NCBI GenBank assembly: GCA_017550925.1
Contig: JAFZNL010000293.1
Location: 1-39,477, forward strand
DNA: 39,477 nucleotides
Source: Lachnospiraceae bacterium
GTDB taxonomy: Bacteria > Bacillota > Clostridia > Lachnospirales > Lachnospiraceae
Direction: 5' to 3'
The notes beneath the pieces were generated by a model that did no database searches, was not told where the DNA came from, and was given only the letters and a program-made list of their open reading frames with translations. The stretch's first letter is position 1. Every line of letters begins with the position of its first letter. The position numbers and the translations under genes were made by a program. Below, in pieces: positions 1,372-24,279 of the stretch.

Positions 1372-2976
1372 CTACCATTCTTCCTCAAGCCAGTTCCTCA
1401 AAAGGTTCGCTACCGCCTCCGGATTCTCATCCACAAACTTCTCTATCAGCTTGCGTTCCTCTGATTTGCCCTCAAGCTCCAGATCTTCAAGCTCTTCCTG
1501 AGGCGTTGACTGCAAAAGCGTTTCCACGGAAAGTTCCTCTTCCGGCTCTTCCTCCTTCTGTGTCCGCATCGAACGGATCACAACGAAGGCCAGGATACCA
1601 AGGATCAGTACGATCAGCAGGATCTGTACGATATCTGCCACTTTGATCTTGCTGCCTTCCTTGTCAATGAAAACAGGCACTTCATAAGCAACGATGGTGA
1701 TGTTCTCCTGGGCGATTCCCGTTGCAGTATGTACCACGCTGTACAGATCTTCGTCCACCGTCAGCTTTGTCTGCTCGCTGTTCGCCGCCTTATACTCATC
1801 CCAGCTCATGTCCACCAGAAGCCCCTGTGCTTCCACATCCTCCTGACGAATGGGATGCAGCTTCTTGGCTGTCACCGAAATGGATGACGAATCATACTTG
1901 ATAAGTCCCGCCGGAACCGTCTGCTTTTCCACGAACTCGTTGGGCAGATACTTCCTTGATTCCTCAGACACCGTCTGACTGGAATCGTTAGCATTTTCGA
2001 TCACATAAGTCGAACCGTTTTCTCCGTTGGAATCTGTTCCCGGCACGCCACCGGTGGAACCCTGGGATTCCGAATTGTAAATATCCTCGCTCGCCAAAAG
2101 TCCCTGGGTGGAACCTTCCGGCGAAGAATAATCATGCCTTGTTCTTTCATAGGACGAAAAATCAAGCTCTAAGTTTGTTGCAACTTCAATGGAATCATAA
2201 AGATTTGTTCCCAGCAAAACTCCCCGGACTTCATTTTTCACCAGCTGCTCCGCCTGAGTCTTGGCTGCCAGCTGCGTACTTGTGCCGCCCACGCCGCCGT
2301 TACCACTCATGATCTCGCCTGAGAACAAAAGATTTCCCACCGTATCGATGATGGTGATATTGTCCGTCGTATCATTTCCCAGCGCCGTTGCAATAAAATG
2401 TGCCAACGCCGCCGCCTGGTCAGACTTCATCTCGCCCTCAAGGTCCAGAACCACCGATGCGGAGGAAGATGCCTTTTGGGAGATCAATGTTCCGTCATCA
2501 TCCGGAACCGTCAGGGTCACATGCGCTTCCTTGATCAGCTCGTTTGCCAAAAGATCCTGCTCCAGCTTATTTTCTTTATAATACACATACCGTTTTTGCT
2601 TGTCAGACTCTGTCGTAGAAAAACCGCCGTCCGTCACATCGGTGATGGAATACCCTACTGTCGGGATGTCATTTGCACCAAGCAACAGATTCACCTTGGA
2701 CTCGTCTTTTTTCAAAACCGAGACTGTCAGCGCATCCTCTGAAGTTTTGTATTCAATGGATTCACCATCCAGCAAAGCAGTGATCGCGGATGATTCCTTC
2801 GCGCTCTCGCACCTGGCGATGACCACATATTCCGGTCTGGTCAGGGCATACGTCAAAATAGCGATCGCCAAAACGGCCGCCGCTGCACTTGATACGATAA
2901 TGGTTTTTTGCTTGGGGGTGAACTTATTCCACCACTCCACAATCCGCTGCCATAAGGCACGTAAACGATCCTGCAT
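1372..2976 (-). CDS. fliF: flagellar M-ring (MS-ring) protein FliF
   Basis: 534-aa ORF with an AAGGAG RBS. It has an N-terminal TM (IIVSSAAAAVLAIAILTYAL), a large extracytoplasmic ring-building region and a second TM (IVQILLIVLILGILAFVVI). The acidic C-terminal tail (VANLLRNWLEEEW) is typical of the FliG-binding end. Synteny is fliE-fliF-fliG. Confidence 0.93.
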   Translation of the reverse strand: MQDRLRALWQRIVEWWNKFTPKQKTIIVSSAAAAVLAIAILTYALTRPEYVVIARCESAKESSAITALLDGESIEYKTSEDALTVSVLKKDESKVNLLLGANDIPTVGYSITDVTDGGFSTTESDKQKRYVYYKENKLEQDLLANELIKEAHVTLTVPDDDGTLISQKASSSASVVLDLEGEMKSDQAAALAHFIATALGNDTTDNITIIDTVGNLLFSGEIMSGNGGVGGTSTQLAAKTQAEQLVKNEVRGVLLGTNLYDSIEVATNLELDFSSYERTRHDYSSPEGSTQGLLASEDIYNSESQGSTGGVPGTDSNGENGSTYVIENANDSSQTVSEESRKYLPNEFVEKQTVPAGLIKYDSSSISVTAKKLHPIRQEDVEAQGLLVDMSWDEYKAANSEQTKLTVDEDLYSVVHTATGIAQENITIVAYEVPVFIDKEGSKIKVADIVQILLIVLILGILAFVVIRSMRTQKEEEPEEELSVETLLQSTPQEELEDLELEGKSEERKLIEKFVDENPEAVANLLRNWLEEEW

Positions 2977-3000
2977 GTGTGCTCCTTATATAGTGGTTTA

Positions 3001-3177
3001 GATATAAGCCGATTGCTCCGTGCTTCGCACTCTCGCAATCGCCACAGCCATTCGCAAATCGCCCCGCTCATTCCATTCGCGTGACTTCTTTGCTTCATGT
3101 CTGTTGGGTTGCCATATGTCCATGCATCCGCTCGTGCAAGCACGGCGTATGCATGCCCGCATGGCAACGCTTATATC
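3001..3177 (-). repeat. copy A of a ~180-nt structured intergenic element (fliE-fliF spacer)
   Basis: It shares an 89-92-nt alignable block with copy B, including a 42-nt identical core (3056-3097). Visible helices: a closing stem 3001-3009/3169-3177 (GATATAAGC/GCTTATATC), a hairpin 3010-3041, a stem 3042-3047/3101-3107 bracketing the core, and an imperfect 61-nt hairpin 3108-3168. The strand is assigned to the operon sense strand only by context. Confidence 0.7.
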
Positions 3178-3500
3178 TGCATATTCATCAGTGTTCTGTA
3201 CGATTCGAGAAATTTATCCCTGACCGCTACCGTGTATTGCAGCGCGGTAGACGCCTTCTGGAGAGCAATGGTCAGGTCATGGGTGGATTCGGTCTCGCCA
3301 AGGGCAAGCCGTATCTCCTCATTCTCTGCATCAGAAACGTAAGCATTGGTCTGGTTGATACTTTTGAGCGCAGCATCAAAAACAGACGCAAACGCATCCG
3401 TATTCTTATCATCGCTTGCGATCTGCCCACGCATCTGATCTGTGCGCATCTGATTATAGATCACGCCACTATTTACATGATACAGATTATCAATTGCCAT
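3171..3500 (-). CDS. fliE: flagellar hook-basal body complex protein FliE
   Basis: 109-aa ORF with an AAGGGGAG RBS. The C-terminal signature THDLTIALQKASTALQYTVAVRDKFLESYRTLMNMQI is typical of FliE. It lies between flgC and fliF. Confidence 0.9.
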   Translation of the reverse strand: MAIDNLYHVNSGVIYNQMRTDQMRGQIASDDKNTDAFASVFDAALKSINQTNAYVSDAENEEIRLALGETESTHDLTIALQKASTALQYTVAVRDKFLESYRTLMNMQI

Positions 3501-3550
3501 TGCTATCTCCCCTTACCGCGGCCATCAAGCCGTGCTCTCGCCTACGTTAT

Positions 3551-3730
3551 ATTGATACCCCGATTGCTCCGCAGCTACGCTGCTCTCGCAATCGCCGCCG
3601 GCCTTCGAAAATCGCCCCGCTCATTCCATTCGCGTGACTTCTTTGCTTCAGTCCGGCGTAACCGGCAAATGTCCGGCTTGCTATCCATGCAAGCATGGCT
3701 ATCTAGCCAGACGCTTGCCGGTGTATCAAT
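3551..3730 (-). repeat. copy B of the ~180-nt structured intergenic element (flgC-fliE spacer)
   Basis: The 42-nt core 3609-3650 is identical to copy A. Visible helices: a closing stem 3551-3558/3723-3730 (ATTGATAC/GTATCAAT), a hairpin 3561-3594, a stem 3596-3601/3653-3658 bracketing the core, and a 60-nt hairpin 3662-3721. Confidence 0.7.
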
Positions 3731-3737
3731 CGCTGTA

Positions 3738-4184
3738 TCAACCACCAGCCATCTCTAACCCTTTGCTTGCCATATTCTTGCTGGCCTGGAAAGCCGTTGC
3801 ATTCGCTTCATAAGAACGGCTCGCCGAGATCAGGTTCGTCATCTCCGTCATGACGTCTACATTCGGATAGGTCACATAACCGTTCTCGTCCGCATCCGGA
3901 TGCGCCGGATCATAAGCTTTTTTCATATCCGTTTCCTGATCTTCAAAGGTACCGATCACGCGCACGCCTTTCCCACGATAAGAACCGGTCGCTTTGGAAA
4001 AAGCATCTGCAAAATGCGCGCCCGTTCCCTTTTCTTCAAAAGTCACGATCTTACGCCGATAGGGCGTTCCGTCCGCCGTCCTTGTGGTATCCACGTTGGC
4101 GATATTCTCTGAAACCACATCCATACGGTAACGCTGTGCTGTCAGACCGGAGGCATTGATATCAAATGAACTGAATAAACCCAT
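3738..4184 (-). CDS. flgC: flagellar basal-body rod protein FlgC
   Basis: 148-aa ORF with an AAAGGAG RBS. It carries the N-terminal rod motif SGLTAQRYRMDVVSENIANVDTTRT and the C-terminal MTEMTNLISASRSYEANATAFQASKNMASKGLEM. Confidence 0.95.
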   Translation of the reverse strand: MGLFSSFDINASGLTAQRYRMDVVSENIANVDTTRTADGTPYRRKIVTFEEKGTGAHFADAFSKATGSYRGKGVRVIGTFEDQETDMKKAYDPAHPDADENGYVTYPNVDVMTEMTNLISASRSYEANATAFQASKNMASKGLEMAGG

Positions 4185-4203
4185 AAGTATTCTCCTTTAA
4201 GCC

Positions 4204-4593
4204 TTATTTCATTACCATCTGCAATCTCGAAAATTCCTGATTCACACTTTGGATCAGCGCGTTGTACTTCAGCTGGTTGCTGGCAAGTTCCGTATTCTCC
4301 GTATCGATATCTACATTGTTACCATCCATACGATAAGAGAAATCTCCGTGATCCACATATGTTCCGACTTCCAGCCTCGAAGTCATCAGCCGATTCACCT
4401 TCTGGTCCACCGTCACATACCGTGCATCCCGCATCTCCCGCTCTAAAACATCCTCGAAATTCACATCGATCCGCTTATATCCCGGTGTATCCACATTGGC
4501 AATGTTATTGGCAATCGCTTCATTGCGGAGCCAGGAAGCATCCGCTGCCTTATCGAGTACCTTTACATAATCATATACATTCGAATTTAACAT
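4204..4593 (-). CDS. flgB: flagellar basal-body rod protein FlgB
   Basis: The sequence includes ANNIANVDTPGYKR and the C-terminal ELASNQLKYNALIQSVNQEFSRLQMVM. The track ORF starts at GTG 4611. I prefer ATG 4593 (MLNSNVYDY...) because GAGGA lies 7 nt upstream of it. Confidence 0.9.
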   Translation of the reverse strand: MLNSNVYDYVKVLDKAADASWLRNEAIANNIANVDTPGYKRIDVNFEDVLEREMRDARYVTVDQKVNRLMTSRLEVGTYVDHGDFSYRMDGNNVDIDTENTELASNQLKYNALIQSVNQEFSRLQMVMK

Positions 4594-4659
4594 ATCTCTA
4601 TCCTCGCTCACTTACGCATTTTCCGGAGCGCTCAAGGTTACATAACACCTCACCACTCT

Positions 4660-4723: not shown

Positions 4724-4760
4724 ACAAAAAAAGGATTCGCAATTTCTCACAAATCCTTTT
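4724..4760 (-). terminator. weak hairpin plus U-run (candidate codY terminator or attenuator)
   Basis: An AAAAGGATT/AATCCTTTT 9-bp stem (4729-4737 with 4752-4760) has a 14-nt loop and is followed on the minus strand by a T-run. The stem is AT-rich, so the hairpin is weak. Confidence 0.35.
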
Positions 4761-4920: not shown

Positions 4921-5706
4921 TCACTTCTTCTGCTTGCGGCTCTCCTCTAATTCCTCATACACATACTCATTGGAAATCTTGATAAAAGTACCTTTCATGC
5001 CTGAAGAACGCGACTCGATCACGCCGGCGCTCTCAAACTTCCGCAACGCGTTAACGATCACCGACCTTGTGATCCCGATGGAATCCGCGATCTTCGATGC
5101 CACAAGGATGCCCTCGCTGGCGCCGCCCAGCTGCTTAAAGATATTGTAGATCGCCTCAAGCTCCGATTGCGATAAAGTGCCGATAGCCGACCGGACTACT
5201 GCTCTGCCCCGCATTTCATCCGCGCTCTCCTCGTGAACGCTTCTCAGCATTTCAAGACCAACTACCGTTGTGCCGTACTCACACAGGATAATGTCATCGA
5301 TCTCATATTCATCCCGCAACTTGTATATAAAAAGCGTGCCTAATCTCTCTCCGGCGATCTCGATCGGAGAGATCAATGCCTTGTATGGCATATCACTTTG
5401 CACCTCGAAACCAAGGGTCGCCAAATTCACATTTTCCTTCGTGGAAAGAACACTCAGAAAACGGTCTGTCAGATTGGTATCAACAAAAGTCCCCACCTTG
5501 TTTTCGATCAGATTATTCAGCAATGGAATGGACGGCCTTGCCCCGATTCCTAAAACCTTACCCTTTTTACTGATCACAAGAACATTAGAACGCAGGATAT
5601 CTCCGAGCACATCACAGATATCATTAAAAACTACCTTGGAAGAATTGTTATTATGCAAAAGCCTGCCGATCTTTCGCGTTTTATCCAAAAGCTGAATACT
5701 GCTCAT
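4921..5706 (-). CDS. codY: GTP/BCAA-sensing pleiotropic transcriptional repressor CodY
   Basis: MSSIQLLDKTRKIGRLLHNN...GERLGTLFIYK... (GAF-like domain), then a C-terminal winged HTH ASKIADSIGITRSVIVNALRKFESAGVIESRSSGMKGTFIKI. The track ORF extends to 5853. ATG 5706 has AGGGGG 6 nt upstream and gives the usual ~261 aa. Confidence 0.93.
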   Translation of the reverse strand: MSSIQLLDKTRKIGRLLHNNNSSKVVFNDICDVLGDILRSNVLVISKKGKVLGIGARPSIPLLNNLIENKVGTFVDTNLTDRFLSVLSTKENVNLATLGFEVQSDMPYKALISPIEIAGERLGTLFIYKLRDEYEIDDIILCEYGTTVVGLEMLRSVHEESADEMRGRAVVRSAIGTLSQSELEAIYNIFKQLGGASEGILVASKIADSIGITRSVIVNALRKFESAGVIESRSSGMKGTFIKISNEYVYEELEESRKQKK

Positions 5707-5824
5707 TGACCATACCCCCTGCCATCCGGCGCTGTGATTGCTGAATTGCGAAACATCCCCGGCCTCCGCAAAACATACCTTCTCTTTTCGTACATTAAAA
5801 AATTCCCCAAATAGCGTACATGTA

Positions 5825-5833
5825 ATTATAACA
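5825..5833 (-). promoter_or_regulatory. candidate extended -10 promoter element for codY
   Basis: TGTTATAAT on the minus strand, about 120 nt upstream of the codY ATG. No good -35 at 17 nt. Confidence 0.25.
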
Positions 5834-5874
5834 CTATTCCGAGGAATTTTCAATCAACTTATTTATTTTGTCGG

Positions 5875-5916: not shown

Positions 5917-8073
5917 TCATGCATTCTCCGTAGCCTTCTTGGGCATCTGCCATACCATATAATCGCATTCCGGATTGTTGATACAGCCATAATACCTGCG
6001 TCCCTTCCTGGTCCGCTTGGCAACAATATCCGCGCCGCACTTCGGGCAGGCAATGCCGATCTTCTCATAATAAGGTTTTGTATTGCGGCACTCAGGGAAA
6101 CCGGGACATGCCAGGAATTTCCCGCTGGGACCATACTTGATCACCATCATCCTGCCACAGTTCTCACACTGCACGTCTGAAACCTCATCCTCAATCTTCA
6201 CGGAAGCGAGCTCCTTCTCAGCCTTCTCCACCGCATCATGCAGATCCGGATAAAAATTCCTGATCACGGTCTTGTATTCCACATCCCCTGTCTCCACTGC
6301 ATCAAGCAGTGATTCCATGGTCGCTGTAAAATTCACATCCACGATAGATGGAAAAGCATCCTTCATCAGCTTGTTGACAGCCTCACCAAGCTCCGTCACA
6401 TACAGACTCCGCTTCTCTTTTGTAATATAATGCCTGCCCATGATGGTCGAGATCGTCGGCGCATAAGTACTCGGCCTGCCGATTCCCTTTTCTTCCATGG
6501 CCCGCACCAGACTTGCCTCTGTAAAATGCGCGGGAGGCTGCGTAAAATGCTGCTCCTGGTCGAAACCGACCGCCGAAAAAGCATCCCCTTTCTTCAGCTT
6601 TTGCAGACACTTGCCGATATCTGTCTTCTTTGCCTTCCTGCGCAGTTCATCCAGTGCCGCATTCCCGGATGAAGAGCCGCCTTTTCCGTCGCCTGCACCG
6701 GCGGTCTTCTTCGCTGCGCCTGTGCCCTTGCCCTCTTCTACCGGAAGCGCATCATCATGATCTTCCTGCTCTTCTGCCTCTGTATAAATATGCATGAATC
6801 CGGCAAACTTCAACGCAGAATCCGCTGCTGTAAATACATAACCATCCTTCTTTGTGGTAAACTTCGCAGAGATCGTTGCATAAACCGCTGCCGTCATCTG
6901 AGATGCCGTAAACCGCTTCCAGATCAGCTGATACAGACGCAGCAGATCCCGCGGAAGAACATTCTTCAGATCCGTCGGAGTGCGTTCAATATCTGTAGGT
7001 CTGATCGCCTCATGGGCATCCTGCACCTTCTTTGCGCCGTCGCCGCTTCCCGCTGCGCCGCCGGAAGATACCGCATTTCCTACATACTGTGCCCCATAAT
7101 TATTTGTGATAAAATTCCTGGCAGCCGCCTGCGCCTCTGCCGAGATACGGGTCGAATCCGTACGAAGATAGGTGATCAGCGCTACCGTGCCGCTTCCCTT
7201 GATCTCCACGCCTTCATAGAGCTGCTGTGCCAGCCGCATTGTCTTTTGTGCGGAAAAATTGAGCGCCTTACTTGCTTCCTGCTGCAAAGTAGAAGTCGTA
7301 AACGGTAGCGGAGCCTTGCGAACACGCTCACCGGTCTTTAATTCTGTTACCTCAAAAAGATCGTCTTTGCAAGCCTTCACGATCGCAGTGGTCTGATCGC
7401 CGCTCTTCAGATCTGCCTTGCCGTCTTTATCTGCACTGAAACGCACCGGCAATACCTGTCCTGCAGCACCTGCTTTCAGAAAGGCATCCAGGGTCCAGTA
7501 TTCTTCCGGCGTAAATGCCGCAATCTCATCCTCCCTGTCACAGATCATGCGAAGTGCCACAGACTGCACTCGTCCCGCAGAAAGGCCCCGTTTGATCTTG
7601 CCCCAGAGAACCGGCGAGATCTGATATCCCACCAGTCTGTCAAGGCCGCGGCGTGCCTGCTGCGCATCCACCAATGACATATCGATCTGACGCGCATTCT
7701 TCAGTGATTCCTTGACTGCATTTTTTGTAATCTCATTAAAAGTGATCCTGTAGACAGGCTTATTCTGTTCCTCTAACTTCAGCGCTATACCCAAATGCCA
7801 GGAGATTGCTTCACCCTCACGGTCCGGGTCGGTTGCCAGATAGATCTTGTCTGCTTTCTTTACTTCTTTTCGAAGAGATGCCAGCAGATCCCCCTTCCCA
7901 CGGATGGTAATATATTGAAAATCAAAGTCATGGTCTACATCGATCCCCATACGGCTTTTGGGCAGATCCCTTACATGTCCGCCGGATGCCATGACCGTAT
8001 AATTCGTACCCAAAAATTTTTTGATCGTCTTCACCTTTGCCGGCGATTCCACAATTACCAGATACTTTGCCAT
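5917..8073 (-). CDS. topA: DNA topoisomerase I
   Basis: 718 aa with an AAGGAG RBS. It has the TOPRIM N-terminus MAKYLVIVESPAKVKTIKKFLG, the active-site Tyr context ITYLRTDSTRIS, and C-terminal Cys4 zinc ribbons (CENCGRMMV...CPGFPEC and CPKCGADIV...CINNPEC). Confidence 0.97.
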   Translation of the reverse strand: MAKYLVIVESPAKVKTIKKFLGTNYTVMASGGHVRDLPKSRMGIDVDHDFDFQYITIRGKGDLLASLRKEVKKADKIYLATDPDREGEAISWHLGIALKLEEQNKPVYRITFNEITKNAVKESLKNARQIDMSLVDAQQARRGLDRLVGYQISPVLWGKIKRGLSAGRVQSVALRMICDREDEIAAFTPEEYWTLDAFLKAGAAGQVLPVRFSADKDGKADLKSGDQTTAIVKACKDDLFEVTELKTGERVRKAPLPFTTSTLQQEASKALNFSAQKTMRLAQQLYEGVEIKGSGTVALITYLRTDSTRISAEAQAAARNFITNNYGAQYVGNAVSSGGAAGSGDGAKKVQDAHEAIRPTDIERTPTDLKNVLPRDLLRLYQLIWKRFTASQMTAAVYATISAKFTTKKDGYVFTAADSALKFAGFMHIYTEAEEQEDHDDALPVEEGKGTGAAKKTAGAGDGKGGSSSGNAALDELRRKAKKTDIGKCLQKLKKGDAFSAVGFDQEQHFTQPPAHFTEASLVRAMEEKGIGRPSTYAPTISTIMGRHYITKEKRSLYVTELGEAVNKLMKDAFPSIVDVNFTATMESLLDAVETGDVEYKTVIRNFYPDLHDAVEKAEKELASVKIEDEVSDVQCENCGRMMVIKYGPSGKFLACPGFPECRNTKPYYEKIGIACPKCGADIVAKRTRKGRRYYGCINNPECDYMVWQMPKKATENA

Positions 8074-8244: not shown

Positions 8245-11200
8245 TTAGTTCAGTCTCAACAGACTTGTCTTGGTAACTCTCAGCTTCTCAACACCATAGT
8301 TCTGAGGATCGGTATCAGAAGGATTCGTTACAATGGTCTTACCTGTCATAGCGGATACACTGTAGAAGATCGAGTGTACTTTCGCATAGATCGTGAAGTC
8401 CGCATTCGTATTCAGATAATTCATCGGCAGGTAGATTGCATAGGTCAGACCGCTATGGAGTTTATCAAACTTATTTGTGGTTGCATTCCTGCTAAGCTCA
8501 GTCGTCAGCGCACCATTCGTATCGGCCTCAAACAGTCTGATCTGATCTGTCACATCCACAACAAAGTCGGAATCCGTATTGCCGAAACCATCAGCGTACT
8601 GCAGCCATTCGGTTGTTCTGTTACCTGCATTCGTTGTCACAGATGCAACTGTGGTATCATTCCGCATAGAACTTGTCTGCAGGAAGAACTTCAGATCCAG
8701 TTCCTTAGAACCTCTGACGAAGTTATTATCTTCCAGTCGCAGGTAAACGATGGTACCATTTGCTTCCTGTCCTGCCGTTGTATTCGGATCAACGAACTTG
8801 TACTTATAATTTCCGTCCGCATCCTTCACTACGGAAGAGTTCACTGTTTCATCCTGTGTTACATTACCATCATACGGAACAGCAATATTGGTAATCTCCG
8901 GTGCATCTAATGTATGGTTTTCATAGAATCCAACCCTCGGCCGGATGAATTTGCTCTTGTATGCGGCAAACAGCGTATTTACAAAGAGCTGTGCTTCATA
9001 CTCGGAACCTGCCGTTACGGATGAATGGCCGGCACCTGTGTAGGTAACATTACCTTTGTTATAGATGTAATATGCATCTGCAGGTCTGACGCCGCCGGAG
9101 TTCACTCCGAACGGATCTGATCCTGATGTATTCGTTCCAAGGGTATACCATACAACGCAGTCAGACTCACCGTCATTATCATCATCTGCATCCATATCCA
9201 GTTCGAAATACTGGTTATGTGTTGTTGCAACCTTGAAACTTGCCGGGATCGCATACGGGAAGGATGTCAGCTGACCTTCATTCAATTTATCTACCGTATA
9301 AGTACCTGCATTCAGGTTTCCGCTGCCCCATTTAAATCTGTTATTATACTTCACAAAGGTCTGTGCTCCGCTGTCATTATACATATAACGGTTCATAGAC
9401 AGAACCGAATCTCCTGCCTTATATGCCGACAGCGTATTTCTCAGTGAACCGGGTTCATAAGCCGGCGTCTTTCCTGTATTCTCAACTGCTTCAAATACGC
9501 CGCCGTCAGCCGCTCTCGTATAATTTACATTCGTGAATAAGCTGTTCATCGCATTCGCCGGTGCAGTTTTGACTCTGTTCAGAAGCGAATATGATCCGTC
9601 ATTCTCCGGAATAATGTAATCCGTAACGCCATACTTATCCATTCCTACAAGGTCACGCAAAGCATAGAAATGTCTGGAATCCGGCATCACCGTATTGAAC
9701 ATGATGAAGTCATGGGTCAGCAGAACCGGATTACCGTTCTCGATATAAGCCTGCAAACCATCCGTTGCAGTCTGCGTACCAAACGGTGCGTAGTTATCAC
9801 CGAAACCGAGAACGATCATGCTGGCACCGACAATATTATCTGCTGCATCGATCACGTATTCGTCAAAATACTGCTGACCAAATTCAGCTGCCGTCAAAGA
9901 AGGATCCGCATTATGCGCTGCCGTATATTTATTATTGAAATCCGTCTGGAAGGTATTGGTATCGATCGTATCGATATATACCTTATACCCCGGCATCTTA
10001 TTCAGATATTTACCAAAACGGCTTCCGTTATTTCTGGTATGGTTTGTTTCACTGGTGTACAGCTGTGTCTCCAGGTTCAGTGTACTCGAAGTATGGTTGA
10101 TCTGAAGGATCTTAATAACCTCATCACCATCCATGGGCTTGGCCACCGTGTTGCCCTGAACAGAAGCATGGGCTGCACTGACTGTCTTATGATCCACCGC
10201 AAACTTCCACGCCAGATAACCGGAATAATCATCATCAACTGCTCGCTTTAGTTCATATTCCACATCCTTCTTCAGTGCATAATACTCTGAATCATCCGGA
10301 TCTCTGTCCGCTTCTGCTCCGCTCGATTTCACGCGGATCGTCACGTCGGTAATATCCTCTGTTTCCTTTGAGTACTTACCGTCATTATTGATATCCAGAT
10401 ACAGATGCGGCCTGAACGTTGAATCTGCGGACATACCGGAGATCTCGGAATTGATCACAAAACCGAAAGTCAGGTATCTGTGGCCATTGGAATCTGCAGT
10501 CAGATATTTTACAGTCGTCGGATCGATAACCAGCGATCCGGGGCTCAGCTCATAATCATAAGCCTGCGGAACCTGTGTCATGGTCAGGCTCACCCTCTGT
10601 TTCAGGATATATTTCTCAAGTGTTTCCTGTGCAACGATTCCTCTCTTAACATCTTCGCAGCTGATCAGGTTCTGGCAGGGCTCAAAGAACGTAGTACCAT
10701 CATAGCTGTTTACATATTCGCCGTTTTGTCCGTATTTATACTGGTAGCGATAACCCAGTGCGTACTCGAACAGCTCATACATATAAGAGGAGTTATCCAT
10801 TCTGCCCTTATCAGTTTTGCTGTTATCATTCGGTTTCTTGACAGCAGTCGGATTTACTTCCCTTTCCTGCGCACCTGCTGTATCAGTTGTTGTCATCAGC
10901 TCCTTATCACAAAGGATCAGGTTGCCGTTATCCAGGAAAGCTTCCAGTTTCGACAGCTTATCTTTCGTGATATCTCTGGAGCCATATCTGTGCCACTTTG
11001 TATCCGGTGTCATAAAGTGATCCATACGCGCTTCATTCACTCTGGTCATACTACCCTGCGAATAATATACATTTCCATACATGGCAGTATTCTGCGTATT
11101 TGTAGATGCGCCGGTGGTAATTCTGAACTGCGGCAGGGATTTCTTTACTTTTGCGGTCACTGACATTCCTTCATACGCCGCCGTGCTGGTTGCCGCATCT

Positions 11201-13293
11201 AATTCTTTCCTGGTATCTATCTGTTCTTCATAATAGAGATCGCCTCTTTGTACTCCGATATAGATGATATCGTAGGTCTCGATCAGGTCTTCATTATGAC
11301 CGTTAAACTCATCCACGTTCATGGATGTGAACCGGATATCATCGATCTTTTTCTGATAATACTCACTCAGATAGTTCGCTGCAAATTCATCACGATTCTT
11401 CTTATATGTATCTGCCAGATATCCATACTCCTCAGATTTCGAATCGACCGGATTATACAGGAAGGAATTCACAGGCTCAATCTCAAGAATATGCAGTGTC
11501 TCCTTCAAAAGGGTCAGCGGATTGCCATCGCTGCAGAGGATATACTGAATCGCCACGGCCGGTGATACGTAAGTTGGCATCTGTCCGTCTGTAGAGTTCT
11601 TATTCGTTGTCGATATATATTCCAGCACAGCTGCAAAACCATTTGCTGCTACTTCCGACGTATATGCATTACTGAAATCACCGGTACAGAACAGATCTCC
11701 TGCATCCGTTTTCGATCTTGAAGCCGCATAGTCAGCAACATGATGATCATATACATATACGTTTCCGTTTACAAAGTTATGGGACGGAACATCGATCATG
11801 TTATCCTTTAAGTATTTCAGGAATTCGTCTGACAGATTGTTCGGATCTGCCAGCGTGATCTTTGTTTTTCCGGTGGTCGAATCCGTGGATTCTACCAGAT
11901 CACTGCCATACAGCGCATAGGCACTGCTGATGGAATCATTCAGCCATAACAGGCGGCACAGCTTATCCACGTTTAATTCTTTTCCGCCGGAATATGCCTT
12001 ATAGTCCATCATAACGGCTTTATGATCGTTTACTTCCTGATCAAAGATCGCCGCCATGACCGCCGGCTTTAAGTCTTTTGTTTCTGAGAATACTACCCCG
12101 GCATCTTTATTTGAACTCGAGGAAATATAGATCAGGTTTGCATTGTCAATATCATCCGTATTGACTTCATTCGCCGGTTTTACATTATATTCAATCTTTG
12201 AATTTGCGTATTCAATCCTACTTCCGAGCACAAATTCACGGAATGCGTCATTAGAAAAGAATCTGTAATTCTGGTCATTTGACATATAAATCGGATCATC
12301 CGTGCTGTAACCGAGATAATAATGTCTTGCCGGATCCGGCACTTCATCAATTCTGATCGCCGTAAAATTCAGATTACCCGTGTTTGTATCATTTCTCGTA
12401 ATATACGGCACGCCAGTCGACGAAGTCGGAAGTTCCTGGCCCGCCCTGATATCCGTGACAAGGGTCTTGACGGTGATTACAAAATTTCCATCTGCATCCT
12501 CTGTGTATCCTTTCTCAACTGCATTTTCACTGACAGTTTTGACTCCATCCGCATCAGCTGCCCAGGTATCTACCGTATTACCACTAACGGTTTCCTGCGT
12601 AACCTGATAAATACCGCCATCATCACCCATAGTATAACCATCGGCAATGTTATAAGCGCCATGATATGCATTATCATCACCGAGCTCAGCCAATGAATAG
12701 GTACCTGATACAAGGATGAAAGTATCCGGAAGCAGATATGGCGTTGTATTCTTATAGGTATCGCTGAAAACCTGCGCGGATTGCGTACCGCCATAATATG
12801 CAAAGATCGGATATTCTTCCACGCCGCTAGCACCTAAACGGTCATCCTTGATCAAACCATATTCCCAATAATTATGGATCGTATCGAGATCAGGATTATC
12901 ATTCAGCGCATTAAATGTCCTTTCCGTCAATGCCATGCCATAGGTAGCGGAAGTCGGCGACTGAATTGCGATATCTACATACCCTGATGGGGTTGCTTTC
13001 GGCGACCTGGGGCCGCGCAGAAAATAACCCATTTCGGAATACTTGTTAAAGTTCTTCGCGGTCTCATACTGGAATGTATTGCTCATTACCTCACTCGACG
13101 GCGTGATCTCGAGAATCTTCAGAACCGTATTACCGTCGCTTACAGGGAATTTCTGCGTAATGCCATCAAATACCTTGACCGCCTGTGCCTCCTGCACGCC
13201 GCTCAAAGTACCTGTCAGGAACATGACCGCAGCCATGGTAATCCCGGCAAATCCCATCCCTATTCTTTTGAGTGCTGTGTTCTTTTTCATCAT
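8245..13293 (-). CDS. 1682-aa secreted protein, last gene of the T4P operon (candidate pilus-associated adhesin, unknown family)
   Basis: It has a Sec-type signal peptide MMKKNTALKRIGMGFAGITMAAVMFLTGTLSGVQEAQA|VK, not a prepilin leader. There is no LPXTG motif and no C-terminal TM. A module signature recurs three times (see findings), and there is an acidic DxDxDG-like motif at 9160-9198. Function is inferred from position only. Confidence 0.85.
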   Translation of the reverse strand: MMKKNTALKRIGMGFAGITMAAVMFLTGTLSGVQEAQAVKVFDGITQKFPVSDGNTVLKILEITPSSEVMSNTFQYETAKNFNKYSEMGYFLRGPRSPKATPSGYVDIAIQSPTSATYGMALTERTFNALNDNPDLDTIHNYWEYGLIKDDRLGASGVEEYPIFAYYGGTQSAQVFSDTYKNTTPYLLPDTFILVSGTYSLAELGDDNAYHGAYNIADGYTMGDDGGIYQVTQETVSGNTVDTWAADADGVKTVSENAVEKGYTEDADGNFVITVKTLVTDIRAGQELPTSSTGVPYITRNDTNTGNLNFTAIRIDEVPDPARHYYLGYSTDDPIYMSNDQNYRFFSNDAFREFVLGSRIEYANSKIEYNVKPANEVNTDDIDNANLIYISSSSNKDAGVVFSETKDLKPAVMAAIFDQEVNDHKAVMMDYKAYSGGKELNVDKLCRLLWLNDSISSAYALYGSDLVESTDSTTGKTKITLADPNNLSDEFLKYLKDNMIDVPSHNFVNGNVYVYDHHVADYAASRSKTDAGDLFCTGDFSNAYTSEVAANGFAAVLEYISTTNKNSTDGQMPTYVSPAVAIQYILCSDGNPLTLLKETLHILEIEPVNSFLYNPVDSKSEEYGYLADTYKKNRDEFAANYLSEYYQKKIDDIRFTSMNVDEFNGHNEDLIETYDIIYIGVQRGDLYYEEQIDTRKELDAATSTAAYEGMSVTAKVKKSLPQFRITTGASTNTQNTAMYGNVYYSQGSMTRVNEARMDHFMTPDTKWHRYGSRDITKDKLSKLEAFLDNGNLILCDKELMTTTDTAGAQEREVNPTAVKKPNDNSKTDKGRMDNSSYMYELFEYALGYRYQYKYGQNGEYVNSYDGTTFFEPCQNLISCEDVKRGIVAQETLEKYILKQRVSLTMTQVPQAYDYELSPGSLVIDPTTVKYLTADSNGHRYLTFGFVINSEISGMSADSTFRPHLYLDINNDGKYSKETEDITDVTIRVKSSGAEADRDPDDSEYYALKKDVEYELKRAVDDDYSGYLAWKFAVDHKTVSAAHASVQGNTVAKPMDGDEVIKILQINHTSSTLNLETQLYTSETNHTRNNGSRFGKYLNKMPGYKVYIDTIDTNTFQTDFNNKYTAAHNADPSLTAAEFGQQYFDEYVIDAADNIVGASMIVLGFGDNYAPFGTQTATDGLQAYIENGNPVLLTHDFIMFNTVMPDSRHFYALRDLVGMDKYGVTDYIIPENDGSYSLLNRVKTAPANAMNSLFTNVNYTRAADGGVFEAVENTGKTPAYEPGSLRNTLSAYKAGDSVLSMNRYMYNDSGAQTFVKYNNRFKWGSGNLNAGTYTVDKLNEGQLTSFPYAIPASFKVATTHNQYFELDMDADDDNDGESDCVVWYTLGTNTSGSDPFGVNSGGVRPADAYYIYNKGNVTYTGAGHSSVTAGSEYEAQLFVNTLFAAYKSKFIRPRVGFYENHTLDAPEITNIAVPYDGNVTQDETVNSSVVKDADGNYKYKFVDPNTTAGQEANGTIVYLRLEDNNFVRGSKELDLKFFLQTSSMRNDTTVASVTTNAGNRTTEWLQYADGFGNTDSDFVVDVTDQIRLFEADTNGALTTELSRNATTNKFDKLHSGLTYAIYLPMNYLNTNADFTIYAKVHSIFYSVSAMTGKTIVTNPSDTDPQNYGVEKLRVTKTSLLRLN

Positions 13294-13361: not shown

Positions 13362-15920
13362 TTAGGTCGTCGGTACCCAAGATTTACTTGTCGGACTGTA
13401 TTTATACTTCTTGCTTCCATAGTTCAGATACAGATAACTGCCCTGTGAATAAATGCCGGCCGTGATCGTATTTCCGTTCGCATCCAGTCCCGTAATGGTG
13501 GACGGTCCGTTCGGCTGATTACTGATGGTCGTCGGGAATTTCAGTCCCGTTTCCGTGGACGTACTGTCTTTTGTCGGGAAGTATACATCTGCTCCTTCCA
13601 CATTTACGGTGATCACCTTGTAATCCGTATAGGAAGCCGCATACTGGCCGATTTTGATCCTGTAATAATCATCCGCGGTCAGGCGCAGGGTGATCGGATC
13701 CGTCATATATTTCCCACCCGCTTTGGCGCTCAGGGTCACTGTTCCTTCATCCACAAAGGTATCCGCATTACCATAACCGGTCATCATGCTGATGGTAAAG
13801 TCTTTATTCACACCACCCTGGCCTTCTTTCAGCAGGTTGTTTGCCATATCGCCGGCAGTATCCGTATTCTTGCCAAGGTATGCACCAAAATAATACATAC
13901 CGCTCTTCGGCTCCATCAGGTTATAGTACTTTGTTGTAACCGAAATGTTTTTACTCTTACCTTTTGCCAATACGATGATATCGGATGTCGGAGAAACTTT
14001 ACTGGTCACTACCGGTTTCGGCGAATAGGTACAATCCTTCTGAAGTTCTGTCAGCTGGCTGACTGAACATCCAAGTGCGGCAGCTGCTTGCGCCTTATAT
14101 TCGCTAAGCCCCTGTCCGATGATGCAATAAGGCTTCGTTGCATCATTGGTCGTATAACCCATTACGTAATGGATCAGTACATTGCCATCGTAGAAGTTCT
14201 TCTTCTGGTCTCCGGAATAGGAGAATGCATTATAGTCCAGATACAGTCTGATCTCCCCGTTCGAATCCGTTGAAATCTTCACCTTGCTGGCACCGTGGTC
14301 TGCTTCTGAAGAGTTGCCGACACCATCCACCATTGTCACTGCAAAGAACTTCACTTCATTGACAGTCGGCACATCATCCTGAGGGTAAGGTTTCTCACCA
14401 TAATACAGGCTGCTGATATTGGTACGGTATCCACGGCTGTATGCACCGTCAGCATTACTTGTCCTGGTGCTCGGCAGGATACCGAAGATCTTCTCTCCGT
14501 ATACCGTATCATCATACTCGGAATAAGCCGTTACCTTAAATGCGAAATCATTGGTTGCGCCCTTACCAAGCTGTACAACATTCGTTGTCAGATTAGTGCC
14601 CGGATTTACAAGCCTTGCAATATTTGCGTCATTGACTACAGCCCAGTCACTGTCGCTTCCGTCATATCTTCTCGATTCCAGTTTCCAGGTCACGCCCGTC
14701 AGATCCAATACATTGACAAGTTCCGGCTTCGCCCTGAAGGAGATACTCTGACCTCCACCGTATGTAACATAGAAATCTGCCTCATTTGCTTCATGGCCGT
14801 TATAAGGATTCTCTTCATAGATCTCATCCCAGTCCTTGATATTCGGAGAAGGGTTAGGGTTTACAGACACGCTGCGGCACATACGCAGATTAACGGTTCC
14901 GTTCGCGGTTACAGCAGGTGTTGTCTTATTCTCGCCATTCTTTGTATAAGCACCGACTGCACTGACTCTCACATTATAGGAAGTCATTGCTTTCGAAAAG
15001 TCTACATTGGTAACATTCAAAAGCGCAGTATCCTCCGTGCCGGCGATGGACGCCCATCCGTCAGAACCTGAATCAACTGACCAGGTATAAGAGATCTTAT
15101 CACGGCTGATGGTACCGGTCGGGAATGCCCTGTATCCAACCTGCGGTGAAGTGGCATCAAATGTCAGATAGGAGTCCGCTGAGCTTGTGGGATTTGACTT
15201 ATAATATCTGCCGAAAAGCCTGTTGTTCTTGATATCAATATAGATTCTGGGCGGCTCCATTGTCAGTCTGTTCAGCGTCGGATCAGCATCCGGATCTTCC
15301 ACAGTCGCCGTTGCGGGAAGTTCCTGATTTCTGACATAAACCTGATAATCACCGTGATATGTCTGGCCTCTCTTCTCAATCAGCATATCGTAGCTGACAA
15401 TACTCTCATTTCCGTAGCGGCTCAGATCCACATCAAAAGAGCTCACATATTCACCAAGCAGCGACGTTGTAGTTGTTGTGCCGCCGCCACCATCCGGCTC
15501 TTCCGTAACAAGATAAACTTCTTTTCGGGTATTATCATATACTACCCTGTACGTAGTCATACTTCCGTCAGCATTGATCGTCTGTACGATCAGGAACTTA
15601 TTCGGATCCGCATCAGGCGTGATCGTGATATTGTTCCCGTATGCATCCACGCGGTTATATGTTGCTGCGAGCATTCCGACCGCTGTCGTGGGATCATCAA
15701 TAATATTCTTTGAATCGATCAATATATCGGAAATGGAATTCGCCACCAGCTGGGATTCCGATTGCAGCTGCGATTCCGCACTGGTTCTTGAATACATGCC
15801 TGAGGACGAATTCATCATTGTAAAGATCATCACTCCCAAAGAGCCAAGAACTGCTATTGCAATAATCAGCTCCAAAAGTGAAAAACCCTTCTGCTTCTTA
15901 CTCATTCTCATTTTTTTCAT
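13362..15920 (-). CDS. giant pilin-like protein (~852 aa) with a prepilin-type N-terminal cleavage/methylation motif
   Basis: MKKMRMSKKQKG|FSLLELIIAIAVLGSLGVMIF is a class III signal (G-1, F+1, E+5, hydrophobic helix). ATG 15920 with AAAGGAG 8 nt upstream is preferred over the track GTG at 15929. The remainder is Ser/Thr/Asn-rich and beta-rich with Ig-like segments. Confidence 0.85.
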   Translation of the reverse strand: MKKMRMSKKQKGFSLLELIIAIAVLGSLGVMIFTMMNSSSGMYSRTSAESQLQSESQLVANSISDILIDSKNIIDDPTTAVGMLAATYNRVDAYGNNITITPDADPNKFLIVQTINADGSMTTYRVVYDNTRKEVYLVTEEPDGGGGTTTTTSLLGEYVSSFDVDLSRYGNESIVSYDMLIEKRGQTYHGDYQVYVRNQELPATATVEDPDADPTLNRLTMEPPRIYIDIKNNRLFGRYYKSNPTSSADSYLTFDATSPQVGYRAFPTGTISRDKISYTWSVDSGSDGWASIAGTEDTALLNVTNVDFSKAMTSYNVRVSAVGAYTKNGENKTTPAVTANGTVNLRMCRSVSVNPNPSPNIKDWDEIYEENPYNGHEANEADFYVTYGGGQSISFRAKPELVNVLDLTGVTWKLESRRYDGSDSDWAVVNDANIARLVNPGTNLTTNVVQLGKGATNDFAFKVTAYSEYDDTVYGEKIFGILPSTRTSNADGAYSRGYRTNISSLYYGEKPYPQDDVPTVNEVKFFAVTMVDGVGNSSEADHGASKVKISTDSNGEIRLYLDYNAFSYSGDQKKNFYDGNVLIHYVMGYTTNDATKPYCIIGQGLSEYKAQAAAALGCSVSQLTELQKDCTYSPKPVVTSKVSPTSDIIVLAKGKSKNISVTTKYYNLMEPKSGMYYFGAYLGKNTDTAGDMANNLLKEGQGGVNKDFTISMMTGYGNADTFVDEGTVTLSAKAGGKYMTDPITLRLTADDYYRIKIGQYAASYTDYKVITVNVEGADVYFPTKDSTSTETGLKFPTTISNQPNGPSTITGLDANGNTITAGIYSQGSYLYLNYGSKKYKYSPTSKSWVPTT

Positions 15921-15995
15921 TCCGGACACTCCTTTAATCCCGCTTTGTGGCCTTGTGCACCAACTCTTTTGCTCAATTTGATTATTGCCTGCTTA

Positions 15996-16541
15996 TTATC
16001 TTGTTCTGTTGATCACCTTGCCGGTGGCCGGGATCAACTGTATCTGATATACCTTATTTGCTGAGGAGTAACACTCTATATATTCCACCTGTGATAGCCC
16101 CGCAGTCGGAGACGGAGATGACAACATCGCTCCGGTAGATCTGTTAAAGCAAATCGTCAATGCTCCGGTAGCCTCATCACCAATTTCCGTTGTCGTAATA
16201 CTGTTTCCGCCATACCTGATACCGATCCTTGCACCGATCTCCACTGCATCTTCCGGTGTTCCGTTCACATAGGTCTTCCGATAGATCTTCTTTCCGTCCT
16301 TATAGACAACCATATAAATATCGCCATTGTTTACCGCTTTCGAAAGTGTTTTTACTTTCAATTCAGAGATGGAATTTGCAAGCAGATTCTTGCATTTTCT
16401 GGCCCTGTAGCCGTTCAATGCATCAATATTATTGGCCATCAATCCCAGAAGAACGCTCAGTATCGCGACAGCTACTATCAGCTCCACCAAACTGAAACCC
16501 TTCTGTACACTTCTTTTATCGGAACGATTTGCGTCTGCCAT
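15996..16541 (-). CDS. minor pilin (prepilin-type N-terminal motif)
   Basis: MADANRSDKRSVQKG|FSLVELIVAVAILSVLLGL. ATG 16541 with GGAGG 8 nt upstream is preferred over TTG 16556. The ATG overlaps the upstream stop as TAATG, which suggests translational coupling. Confidence 0.85.
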   Translation of the reverse strand: MADANRSDKRSVQKGFSLVELIVAVAILSVLLGLMANNIDALNGYRARKCKNLLANSISELKVKTLSKAVNNGDIYMVVYKDGKKIYRKTYVNGTPEDAVEIGARIGIRYGGNSITTTEIGDEATGALTICFNRSTGAMLSSPSPTAGLSQVEYIECYSSANKVYQIQLIPATGKVINRTR

Positions 16542-19057: not shown

Positions 19058-19113
19058 GGCCATCTCTCCCTTTCTTACAAATAACAGACGCTGCAACGAA
19101 ACAAAATCAACTC

Positions 19114-20604
19114 TTAAACTCTTCCTCCGGACAATGCACCCTTATAGGTTACTTCTGTTCCGGTCTTTCTGTCTTTTACGATAATTTCAACATTATAAAT
19201 GGTAGGTGTTGTTGAATCCATCAATCCGTCATCGATCAATCTCTCATAATCATCCGACAAAATTTTATTTACCGTAGTATTGTAATAGATATCGCAACGG
19301 TTCTTGTCATAATGGGTGGAAATCGAGGTAATATCAGGATCTGTATCCGAAATGCCTTTTTTCCTGTTCAGACGCTTAGTATTCTCTTCCGATATCTCAT
19401 GTCCGCCTTCGTCATAATATCTGAGGTTGTCCAAAGAACCCAGATTCAGGTCATAACGAAGATTCTGCACTACCTTTGTCAAGTCATTCAAATTACCGGC
19501 CCCGTCATCCGATGTGATATGTAATTCACACTTATAACTGGAATTAATGGCATCCGAGGAGTTTCTCTTCTGACGGAATACAAAGAAGTTGATCTCCTCT
19601 CCGGTATGATTGACAAGCTCGATCGTATCCAACGATGACGCCAGACTGCTTCCGGGCGTACCGCAGTATGTTAGATAAATATTTCTCGGTTTTTCCGAAT
19701 TATTGTCATAGATCGGCGAAAGGTTAACGGGAAGATAAACGCTGTCCACCGGGTTAAGATTCCAGCTGGTCACGTAAGTGTCCTTGATCTTATATTTCTC
19801 GGTTACAAGCACCTGATAATCGGGATGATCCGCATCCGGACCGTCATTTGTCACTTCACAGCGAAGTACATGCTCGATCTTCCCGTTTAGCATGCTCTGG
19901 TTGATCACCGTTACCGGGCTGGTAAGTGTGGCAAAGGTGCTCATGGCATCTGAATAGTAGGATCCGCCGCCTGCTCTTTCCACATTGGCAAAACTGCAGT
20001 CGATGGAGTCATTTACTTCATACATACGATTCAGTTCGTCATCGATCTTGCCCTGATATCCTGCGTAAGACATTTTGATGGAAACATCGTAGGTGTTCTT
20101 CTGCTGTTTCAGTCCGTTGATATAGAAGTAGTAGTCCGGCTCAGCCTTATTCATCTTGGGTATAACCTTGGATCCCACAAGATCTGCATACTGCATGCCG
20201 AGACTTGCTGTCGCATCCTCCGCAGCCGTATTGTCGTCAGTATTGACATCTACCTTATATCCGTCTGTCAGAGTGCCGCCGGACATGACCCTGTCACCAT
20301 GGGAAGAATATTTAAGTCGTGCTGGAAGCAATGTGCCGTTGAGAGATTCAGCACTTTCGAATTTCGCAATTACTTCTTCGCCTTTATAAGCACTCAGACC
20401 TTCCATGATGTCCTGCGCCAGATTCATTTCATTCAGCTGTCTTCTGGCCTTCATGTTGACGGTACCGGATTTTACGAAATTAGAGATCATAGGCGCAGCC
20501 GCGACAGCCAGAATTGCTACCGCAATGATCACCTCGACCAGTGTAAAACCACTATTTTTTTTCATTTGATCGTTTCTTCGTTTCATCATCCATCCGCCCT
20601 TCAT
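19114..20604 (-). CDS. minor pilin (496-aa ORF) with a prepilin-type N-terminal motif
   Basis: ...MKKNSG|FTLVEVIIAVAILAVAAAPMISNF. The start is uncertain: candidate ATGs are at 20604, 20589/20586 and 20565. Confidence 0.85.
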   Translation of the reverse strand: MKGGWMMKRRNDQMKKNSGFTLVEVIIAVAILAVAAAPMISNFVKSGTVNMKARRQLNEMNLAQDIMEGLSAYKGEEVIAKFESAESLNGTLLPARLKYSSHGDRVMSGGTLTDGYKVDVNTDDNTAAEDATASLGMQYADLVGSKVIPKMNKAEPDYYFYINGLKQQKNTYDVSIKMSYAGYQGKIDDELNRMYEVNDSIDCSFANVERAGGGSYYSDAMSTFATLTSPVTVINQSMLNGKIEHVLRCEVTNDGPDADHPDYQVLVTEKYKIKDTYVTSWNLNPVDSVYLPVNLSPIYDNNSEKPRNIYLTYCGTPGSSLASSLDTIELVNHTGEEINFFVFRQKRNSSDAINSSYKCELHITSDDGAGNLNDLTKVVQNLRYDLNLGSLDNLRYYDEGGHEISEENTKRLNRKKGISDTDPDITSISTHYDKNRCDIYYNTTVNKILSDDYERLIDDGLMDSTTPTIYNVEIIVKDRKTGTEVTYKGALSGGRV

Positions 20605-20643
20605 GTTAGAAGCAACTGTTTTTGTTACAGGATTTTGCCAAGA

Positions 20644-20678
20644 CAGGCAATAGGGAATTTTCCCTGCCCTATTGCCTG
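20644..20678 (-). other. perfect 12-bp intercistronic hairpin between pilO and the minor-pilin genes
   Basis: CAGGCAATAGGG (20644-20655) pairs with CCCTATTGCCTG (20667-20678) around an 11-nt loop. No U-run follows on the minus strand. Confidence 0.6.
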
Positions 20679-20700
20679 CATATTACAACTTTATTTCTAA

Positions 20701-21507: not shown

Positions 21508-21524
21508 GATCTGTTTCCCTCCTG

Positions 21525-23357: not shown

Positions 23358-23481
23358 GATTTACCTCCTAAGATCTTTGAGCAGCTCGCCCTCGTTTTTC
23401 ACCGGTATTGCCGGTTTTATATCAACCCCTGCCTTCATCTGCTCAATTGCAAGGGAATAATATACAATTTCACGAAAAATT

Positions 23482-24258: not shown

Positions 24259-24279
24259 AGGGGAAATGCCTCCTTGCGG

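Follow-up and report, generated by a model that had tools for sequence, protein, structure and literature searches.

Two copies of the Clostridiales-1 RNA (RF01699), probably a mobile structured repeat, in the spacers of a Lachnospiraceae flagellar operon

Several families of small repeats are known to reside inside bacterial transcripts. Correia elements (CREE/NEMIS) of Neisseria are small and non-autonomous, carry terminal inverted repeats (TIRs) and target duplications, occur in many copies that are often intergenic, and are co-transcribed with neighbouring genes into long RNA hairpins that are cut by RNase III with altered transcript stability; they are simple palindromes with a TA duplication, some of them bearing promoters or IHF sites. 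Likewise dispersed, structured and transcribed with operons, in intercistronic regions or 3' untranslated regions, are the REP/BIME and ERIC (IRU) repeats of enterobacteria, BOX/RUP of Streptococcus pneumoniae and bcr1 of the Bacillus cereus group. RUP and bcr1 resemble miniature inverted-repeat transposable elements (MITEs), whereas REPs are ~35-nt hairpins mobilised by RAYT (Y1) transposases and are without TIRs or target duplications; REPs shield upstream mRNA from 3' exonucleases, leading to differential expression within operons. Here we describe two ~180-nt elements at the head of a flagellar operon in a 39,477-nt stretch of Lachnospiraceae DNA (contig JAFZNL010000293.1, hereafter the window), copy A in the fliE-fliF spacer and copy B in the flgC-fliE spacer, both of which belong to the Clostridiales-1 RNA family (RF01699) and are probably passengers in the flagellar mRNA. 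Coordinates throughout are positions in the window, and minus-strand features are read as operon-sense RNA.

Compared with these systems, Clostridiales-1 has no sequence relation to Correia elements, is found in another phylum, possesses an additional three-hairpin module that makes it a four-way junction, and is associated with a 7-8-bp AT-rich duplication. It is equally unrelated in sequence and fold to REP/BIME, ERIC, BOX/RUP and bcr1, none of which is known to form a four-way junction with a hairpin like its P4 (the hairpin with a conserved internal loop). Hairpin and twister-sister ribozymes are similar to Clostridiales-1 in gross four-way-junction architecture with conserved loops in adjacent arms, and in being found as repeated elements, but there is no Rfam match and no common core nucleotide between them, such that the likeness comes from architecture alone.

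Two members of a catalogued RNA family

Scanning the whole window against Rfam 15 (cmscan, gathering threshold for RF01699 of 48 bits) returned exactly two above-threshold matches, both to RF01699 at full length on the minus strand and coinciding with copies A and B (Table 1), and a permissive search of the copy A/B region revealed no other Rfam family at E <= 1. Both elements are therefore members of the already catalogued Clostridiales-1 RNA and not a novelty; a match of this kind is what a previous reading of the letters without database searches (hereafter the sequence-only reading) had named as refuting its own proposal. In Weinberg et al. (2010, Genome Biol 11:R31; PMC2864571, supplement) the family appears as 'a large four-stem structure' from the human gut that is 'very common', with 206 representatives, significant covariation and a conserved tetraloop. 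It was scored there as neither cis-regulatory nor a riboswitch, its function was not given, and the account neither mentions inverted repeats, target duplications or insertion polymorphism nor flags the motif as a repeat (PMC2864571). The Rfam type label of RF01699 is 'Gene; sRNA'.

The window copies share with RF01699 the four stems, the GCUUGC tetraloop on a first hairpin of variable length, the P4 sequence GAUUGCG-R-GAG ... CGGAGCAAUC, and the taxon (Clostridiales, specifically Lachnospiraceae); the known host range of the family, Clostridiales of the human and animal gut, fits a window for which NCBI gives the name 'Lachnospiraceae bacterium' to the closest homologues of FliE. They depart from typical members as a GC-richer subfamily in which P4 starts with CGAUUGCGAGAG, the closing stem (P0) is ATAAGC/GCUUAU-like, the P3 loop is longer, and the GGGUCAAAAGG motif at the base of P1 is missing, none of which excludes membership.

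Unconstrained minimum free energy folding of the sense (minus-strand) RNA gave the same four-way junction for both copies, formed by the closing stem and three hairpins, with -83.9 kcal/mol (z = -9.0) for copy A (3000-3178) and -81.7 kcal/mol (z = -5.8) for copy B (3553-3728); copy A also scored 109.6 bits with a covariance model built in this analysis. On the level of structure the sequence-only reading held up well, as its coordinates for the two elements, its shared 42-nt block, its four helices and its CUUG loops (CAAG on the plus strand, at 3137-3140 in A and 3690-3693 in B) were all confirmed. The 42-nt block reads the same, letter for letter, in copy A (3056-3097) and copy B (3609-3650), has no third match in the window with up to 3 mismatches (100 shuffles also gave 0 matches), and is part of an ungapped A/B repeat that reaches 68 nt at 93% identity. 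Re-deriving the helices by folding reproduced the compensatory differences between the copies as first described: the P4 hairpin has the outer stem CGAUUGC/GCAAUCG in both, with an inner stem of GUGC/GCAC in A and GCAGC/GCUGC in B, and the P1 arms of copy B are unrelated in sequence to those of copy A. Across the family P4 is the most conserved module, with its outer stem 99% paired in the family alignment. The fliE stop codon does lie within the closing stem of copy A, which stops 12 nt short of the fliF AAGGAG (~10 nt had been noted), and a second TGATACA at 3734-3740, 5 nt upstream of the closing-stem arm of copy B, overlaps the flgC stop codon. As a side observation, the family consensus contains an internal repeat, in that GGAUUGCGAAUG on the 3' side of P2/P3 resembles GGAUUGCG(G/A)GAG on the 5' side of P4 (3042-3060 versus 3030-3041 in the window, minus strand) and AGCAA occurs in both of the partner strands, which makes an alternative pairing of the P2/P3 and P4 arms, and with it a possible switch, conceivable.

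The fold is also supported across the family. Among 101 aligned members, 72.6% of the cells were paired versus 58.1% in shuffles (reached by 0 of 500) and 32-45% when partners were slid, with double changes in 49 of 56 pairs, in an alignment that was guided by the covariance model and so leans towards the modelled structure. This guidance was needed, as MAFFT with RNAalifold got no further than the base of P3 and P4. It is with the internal GGTATCA that the closing stem covaries, and not with the outer inverted repeat described below, which argues for a constraint on the hairpin rather than mere conservation of transposon ends. Together with folds that are kept in the orthologues of three species, this covariation bears out the earlier suggestion of a structure under selection instead of a chance repeat.

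Dispersal and MITE-like anatomy of the family

Clostridiales-1 is dispersed in many copies, both within and between genomes. In the published seed alignment, at least 22 near-identical copies of 168 nt lie on ~20 contigs of one assembly, NZ_ABOU02, which we take to be Ruminococcus lactaris. A dispersal scan with the conserved P4 hairpin pattern over 185,579 genomes, one per species, found at least 120 loci, and among the matches listed nearly all were in Lachnospiraceae (Blautia, Agathobacter, Fusicatenibacter, Coprococcus, Enterocloster, Bilifractor and others), with several assemblies holding 2-3 separate loci. Profile searches followed by the covariance model made in this analysis yielded ~55 full-length copies and many partial ones. 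For the window's own subfamily, a looser P4 pattern found 4 loci in JGI metagenomes, all non-flagellar, and an exact 30-mer of the 42-nt core had 0 matches in the same metagenomes. Copies were also seen on 11 records of faecal phage collections (H1-H11, MT835871.1 and others; unannotated human-faecal 'Bacteriophage sp.') and on 5 IMG/VR viral contigs (L143-L147), which may reflect prophage, misbinned bacterial DNA or a route of spread, whereas a BLAST search of plasmids gave no Clostridiales-1 match.

With respect to genomic context, 83 of 98 family copies are intergenic, and those between co-directional genes lie in sense far more often than in antisense (31 versus 11, binomial p = 0.003), with many family copies beginning no more than 10 nt from the stop codon of the upstream gene. 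About a quarter of the copies are antisense to genes or lie between divergent or convergent genes. Flagellar neighbours were found at none of the 120 genome loci listed and none of the 4 metagenome loci (tblastn with FlgB, FlgC, FliE, FliF and FliG). A cis-regulatory leader, be it riboswitch or attenuator, was considered and rejected given the variable neighbour genes, the mixed orientations and the lack of a terminator-like site, and the family was scored otherwise in the published account as well (PMC2864571).

At many loci the Rfam unit (TGATACC...GGTATCA) is followed by a 3' extension of ~30 nt, such as AAGGGGTCAAAAGACCTTTTGACCCCAACATCA, the end of which is an inverted repeat of the element's 5' end TGATACCAGGGTCAAAAGGTC, so that these long-form copies possess imperfect TIRs of ~20 bp (GATRCCAGGGTCAAAAGGTC ... 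GACCTTTTGACCCCAACATC). AT-rich direct repeats flank the long forms (ATTTTTAT, TTTTATAA, ATAATCAT, ATTAATAT, ATTTTAAT) and indicate a target duplication of 7-8 bp: among 19 clear long-form copies, 8 agree in register at no fewer than 7 of 8 flanking bases, versus 1.8% in a null of mismatched flank pairs, and most of the remaining ones have a 7-bp repeat that is one base out of register. Shorter derivatives also occur, including TIR-only palindromes, P1-only units and tandem arrays of 3' partial units. Such arrays were seen at L061:4272-4777, L022:466-1002, L131:106-384 and, in L059, downstream of 5144, the last of these contigs also having a (TAGATATCR)n microsatellite directly 3' of a copy. 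Read from its sequence, the long form bears the hallmarks of a non-autonomous cut-and-paste element, that is, a MITE, and the family likewise combines many copies per genome (NZ_ABOU02) with filled and empty alleles at single sites (in a sister species of the window's, see below).

The operon head and its spacers in relatives

We compared the three flagellar spacers among contigs that encode an identical FliE protein and among more distant relatives. One of the identical-FliE contigs is the window's own; the others are only 85-88% identical to it in DNA, which makes them a sister species, and are 92-100% identical among themselves. At fliE-fliF, four of seven sister-species contigs are empty (12-14 nt), one (L125) has a full copy (99.4 bits) and two have a divergent version of 237 nt; the CAGATATAA of the copy A 5' arm region is also present at the empty sites. 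At flgC-fliE the sister species has either a 75-nt mini element, consisting of only the closing stem P0 and P4 and repeating the P4 tip CAGCGTAGCTG of copy B, or an unrelated filler of 100 nt, and at flgB-flgC, which is empty in the window, it has a 5'-truncated copy of 95-103 nt. The polymorphism lies within this sister species, not within the window's own species. A further relative, L133 (91% identity in FliE, 76-82% in DNA), carries a full copy in the fliE-fliF spacer, its two other spacers being occupied by degenerate or unrelated fillers, while in lineages whose FliE is 89%, 70% and 69% identical all three spacers are 11-50 nt long and contain only a ribosome-binding site (RBS). On this evidence the compact state is the ancestral one, to which the copies are clade-specific additions, and FliE/FliF expression evidently tolerates both filled and empty states.

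Some of the spacer fillers are of other kinds. The 100-nt filler at L121:2901-3000 in the flgC-fliE spacer is unrelated to Clostridiales-1 and contains a CCTTCCCCCCAGGGGGAAGG hairpin, and the same spacer of L133 has a 264-nt filler (2280-2542) that is also unrelated. The operon head seems to collect insertions in this clade.

The fliE-fliF copy itself is one old insertion, as it has the same junction (CAGATATAA followed by (A)GCGTTGCC) and the same P1 base in the window, L125 and L133; its four-way junction is kept in all three, at -83.9, -90.6 and -78.0 kcal/mol, respectively. Between the window and L125 the distal arms have turned over with pairing kept (22 of 49 positions differ in P1 and 8 of 21 in P3). 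The 42-nt core that the sequence-only reading called invariant, although identical in A and B, accordingly differs in the L125 orthologue (these 8 of 21 distal positions) and in the family consensus, and is a local feature of this genome, not a family constant. A CsrA-type site had been proposed on account of a GGA within AUGGAAUG, which is present in the P3 loop of both window copies; the loop is GAACGAAGAGA in L125 and GAUA in the consensus, so that both are without the GGA, which lies where the element is conserved least, and the proposal is not supported. Nor is a flagellum-specific role in setting FliE, FliF and rod stoichiometry supported, given no flagellar loci among those surveyed, compact spacers in relatives and polymorphic sites.

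In the window the gene order is topA-codY-flgB-flgC-fliE-fliF (Table 1), and the spacers measure 19 nt (flgB-flgC), 237 nt (flgC-fliE) and 194 nt (fliE-fliF), as had been noted. A terminator-like hairpin with a T-run in the codY-flgB interval (4729-4760, minus strand) suggests that the flagellar operon probably has its own start downstream of it, and a scan found no promoter-like or terminator-like site within or next to copy A or copy B.

Table 1. Positions of the two Clostridiales-1 copies, their structural parts and the host operon in the window
Feature	Position	Strand	Basis or detail
Copy A, Clostridiales-1 (RF01699), fliE-fliF spacer, operon sense	3000-3178	minus	cmscan 103.6 bits, model 1-166/166
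Copy A closing stem P0	3169-3178 (5' arm AGAUAUAAGC) with 3000-3009 (GCUUAUAUCU)	minus	fold; includes fliE stop UAA
Copy A long hairpin P1	3108-3168	minus	fold; 23 pairs, apical G-CUUG-C (GCUUGC 3136-3141)
Copy A P2/P3 arm	3042-3107	minus	fold; stem bracketing the core, with the 42-nt block
Copy A P4 hairpin	3010-3041	minus	fold; CGAUUGC-GAGA-GUGC-GAA-GCAC-GGA-GCAAUCG
Copy B, Clostridiales-1 (RF01699), flgC-fliE spacer, operon sense	3553-3728	minus	cmscan 90.5 bits, model 1-166/166
Copy B closing stem	3723-3728 (UGAUAC) with 3553-3558 (GUAUCA)	minus	fold
Copy B long hairpin P1	3661-3722	minus	fold; G-CUUG-C (GCUUGC 3689-3694)
Copy B P2/P3 arm	3596-3658	minus	fold; with the 42-nt block
Copy B P4 hairpin	3561-3594	minus	fold; inner stem GCAGC/GCUGC
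fliF	1372-2976	minus	Pfam labels via identical contig L122
fliE	3171-3500	minus	Pfam labels via identical contig L122
flgC	3738-4184	minus	Pfam labels via identical contig L122
flgB	4204-4611	minus	Pfam labels via identical contig L122
Flagellar operon head flgB-fliF, host context	1372-4611	minus	downstream of codY (4921-5853) and topA (5917-8073)

Beyond the operon, the window contains a minus-strand gene for a 1682-aa DUF5057 protein (8245-13293) and a type IV pilus-like gene cluster (13362-28243, minus) with T2SSE/PilB (26492-28243), T2SSF/PilC (25222-26445) and a PilM-like gene (21525-23357); the cluster also encodes proteins of unusual size (496-855 aa) that bear prepilin N-terminal methylation motifs. 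A 44-nt direct-repeat family at 15847, 16459, 20510, 24670 and 25151 corresponds to the conserved prepilin N-terminus of this cluster. On the plus strand, two adjacent giant open reading frames (28599-33488 and 33593-38737; 1629 and 1714 aa) each contain a YfhO membrane-protein domain.

A probable structured passenger and its alternatives

Clostridiales-1 is a structured repeat of ~170 nt and four stems, present in many copies across Lachnospiraceae genomes, that probably behaves as a small mobile element, and we favour, with a probability of roughly 0.65, the reading that its copies here are structured mobile passengers in the flagellar mRNA, at most modulatory. Under such a scenario, copies would have entered the short intercistronic spacers at the flagellar operon head in the window's lineage, those that landed being sense-oriented, directly after stop codons and upstream of the next RBS, and would afterwards have been kept, truncated, swapped or lost in different relatives. 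They would be transcribed within the flgB-fliF mRNA with no promoter or terminator of their own, and the RNA would fold into a very stable four-way junction in which P0 and P1 stack into a duplex of ~30 bp. By analogy to other transcribed repeats (REP/BIME, ERIC and Correia), the effect on the host may be passive or mildly modulatory, with the element acting as an exonuclease block or an RNase III-type substrate that uncouples the decay of neighbouring cistrons, and may be small and dispensable. The fold and the P2-P4 sequences, conserved throughout the family, would then serve the element's own persistence, or its tolerance, in transcribed spacers, and we infer that it is not a dedicated regulator of flagellar stoichiometry.

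A number of observations weigh against this reading. Copies A and B have only a closing stem of 6-10 bp, are, like their orthologues, without the 3' inverted-repeat extension and the GGGTCAAAAGG terminal motif, and show no 7-8-bp target duplication, with only an ATAA microhomology at the filled/empty boundary of fliE-fliF, so that their own mobility does not follow from the anatomy of the family; they may be derivatives of some age that no longer move. A transposase with matching ends (GATRCCAGGGTCAAAAGG) was not found, there being no pair of TIRs 1-3 kb apart around an open reading frame in 132 loci, and the IMG/VR matches to the TIR were all MITE copies, such that loci and IMG/VR together gave only MITE copies and shorter derivatives and no autonomous partner. 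An IS256-like source (8-9-bp duplications, ends starting with GATA) is conceivable. Counts of G-U versus A-C pairs leave the strand undecided overall (264 versus 260), as the sequence-only reading had cautioned, in part because P1 and P2 align poorly in the covariance-model alignment. Lastly, once the distal P1 and P3 arms are set aside, the fliE-fliF copies of the window and L125 differ at only 3 of 110 positions, versus 13% in the coding flanks (binomial p = 2e-4). This resembles purifying selection on the copy and hints at a function for the host that the passenger reading underrates; together with the compensated turnover inside the arms, it is what one would expect of a structured RNA under selection.

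This last pattern leads to the alternative of a domesticated intercistronic RNA, which would serve as a processing site, a stabiliser or an insulator of translation and so determine how much FlgC, FliE and FliF are made relative to one another. Speaking for it are the slowly changing core set against arms that turned over with compensation, the identical junction and retained four-way junction in three species, and the placement of copy A, which is sense-oriented and spans from the stop codon to just before the RBS. Domestication is hard to reconcile with a sister species that has an identical FliE and yet is empty at fliE-fliF in four of seven contigs and divergently filled in two more, with the lineages of 89%, 70% and 69% FliE identity that do without the element at all three sites, and with a family that has no flagellar association at the loci surveyed. 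Moreover, in a comparison of the window with L133 the core is conserved no more strongly than coding DNA (21 of 113 positions differ), and the segment common to A and B is absent from the orthologues, so that gene conversion can mimic conservation. Copy B illustrates this with mixed affinities, its P4 tip being common to the sister-species mini element and its P3 (the '42-nt core') to copy A, which implies that exchange between copies happens and could keep cores near the consensus of the family with no local selection. The fliE-fliF copy is subject to some constraint or to gene conversion, and we consider domestication for flagellar output unlikely. A broader version strikes us as improbable too: a transposon-borne structured RNA module would be selected for working in transcripts and survive preferentially in sense just after stop codons, with one copy, at fliE-fliF and perhaps also at flgC-fliE, having been domesticated in this clade as an intercistronic processing or stability element, and purifying selection having maintained it in three or more species even as its arms changed in a compensatory manner.

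Alternatively, the fold may matter as DNA, as a single-stranded hairpin or cruciform in transposition or replication, with the RNA an irrelevant by-product. P0 and P1 are built from the terminal inverted repeats of the element, the overall G-U versus A-C count favours neither strand, with P0 and P3 leaning the 'wrong' way, and hairpin-prone DNA can gain compensatory changes by template switching without selection. However, elements that have TIRs and a 7-8-bp duplication transpose as double-stranded DNA, for which internal hairpins are unneeded, and several features distinguish the strands. The purine-rich asymmetric loops of P4 and P2/P3 and the CUUG tetraloop favour one strand; in 53 of 54 copies the sense RNA has a more stable fold than the antisense RNA (-73.7 versus -63.0 kcal/mol, a mean difference of 10.6 kcal/mol, p = 2e-10); and in P4 and the P1 tip G-U pairs outnumber A-C by 41 to 11 in favour of sense. 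The 31:11 bias to the sense orientation of flanking genes adds to this, although a replication-strand bias could do the same. On balance a role restricted to DNA appears quite improbable.

A free-standing, trans-acting small RNA gene with its own promoter and terminator would agree with the 'not cis-regulatory' classification of Rfam and Weinberg et al. and with the quarter of family copies that are antisense or between divergent or convergent genes. We regard it as very unlikely, since both window copies fill operon spacers, overlapping a stop codon at the 5' side and abutting an RBS at the 3' side, with no promoter-like or terminator-like site nearby, and dozens of near-identical copies per genome are atypical of such genes. 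Least plausible of all is a self-cleaving or otherwise catalytic RNA recalling the hairpin and twister-sister ribozymes, which the adjacency at the junction of P2/P3 and P4, with the most conserved internal loops, and the general tendency of multi-copy repeats to host small ribozymes would suggest, but which finds no Rfam ribozyme family at E <= 1 and no sequence resemblance to catalytic cores.

For the window itself, the result is the rediscovery of a catalogued motif and carries little weight, as nothing ties the element to flagellar regulation. For Clostridiales-1, an abundant structured RNA of the gut microbiome that has been without an assigned function since 2010, it offers a frame, that of a MITE-like structured repeat inside operon transcripts, which rests on the TIRs and 7-8-bp duplications, the truncated and modular derivatives, the sense bias, the filled and empty alleles, and the orthologous copy that has kept its fold. 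Occurring naturally both filled and empty, the flagellar spacers would amount to a ready-made experiment on the effect of the element on neighbouring cistrons. If the reading of a selected module with a domesticated copy were true, a 15-year-old orphan Rfam motif would turn out to be a mobile 'operon punctuation' RNA of Lachnospiraceae.

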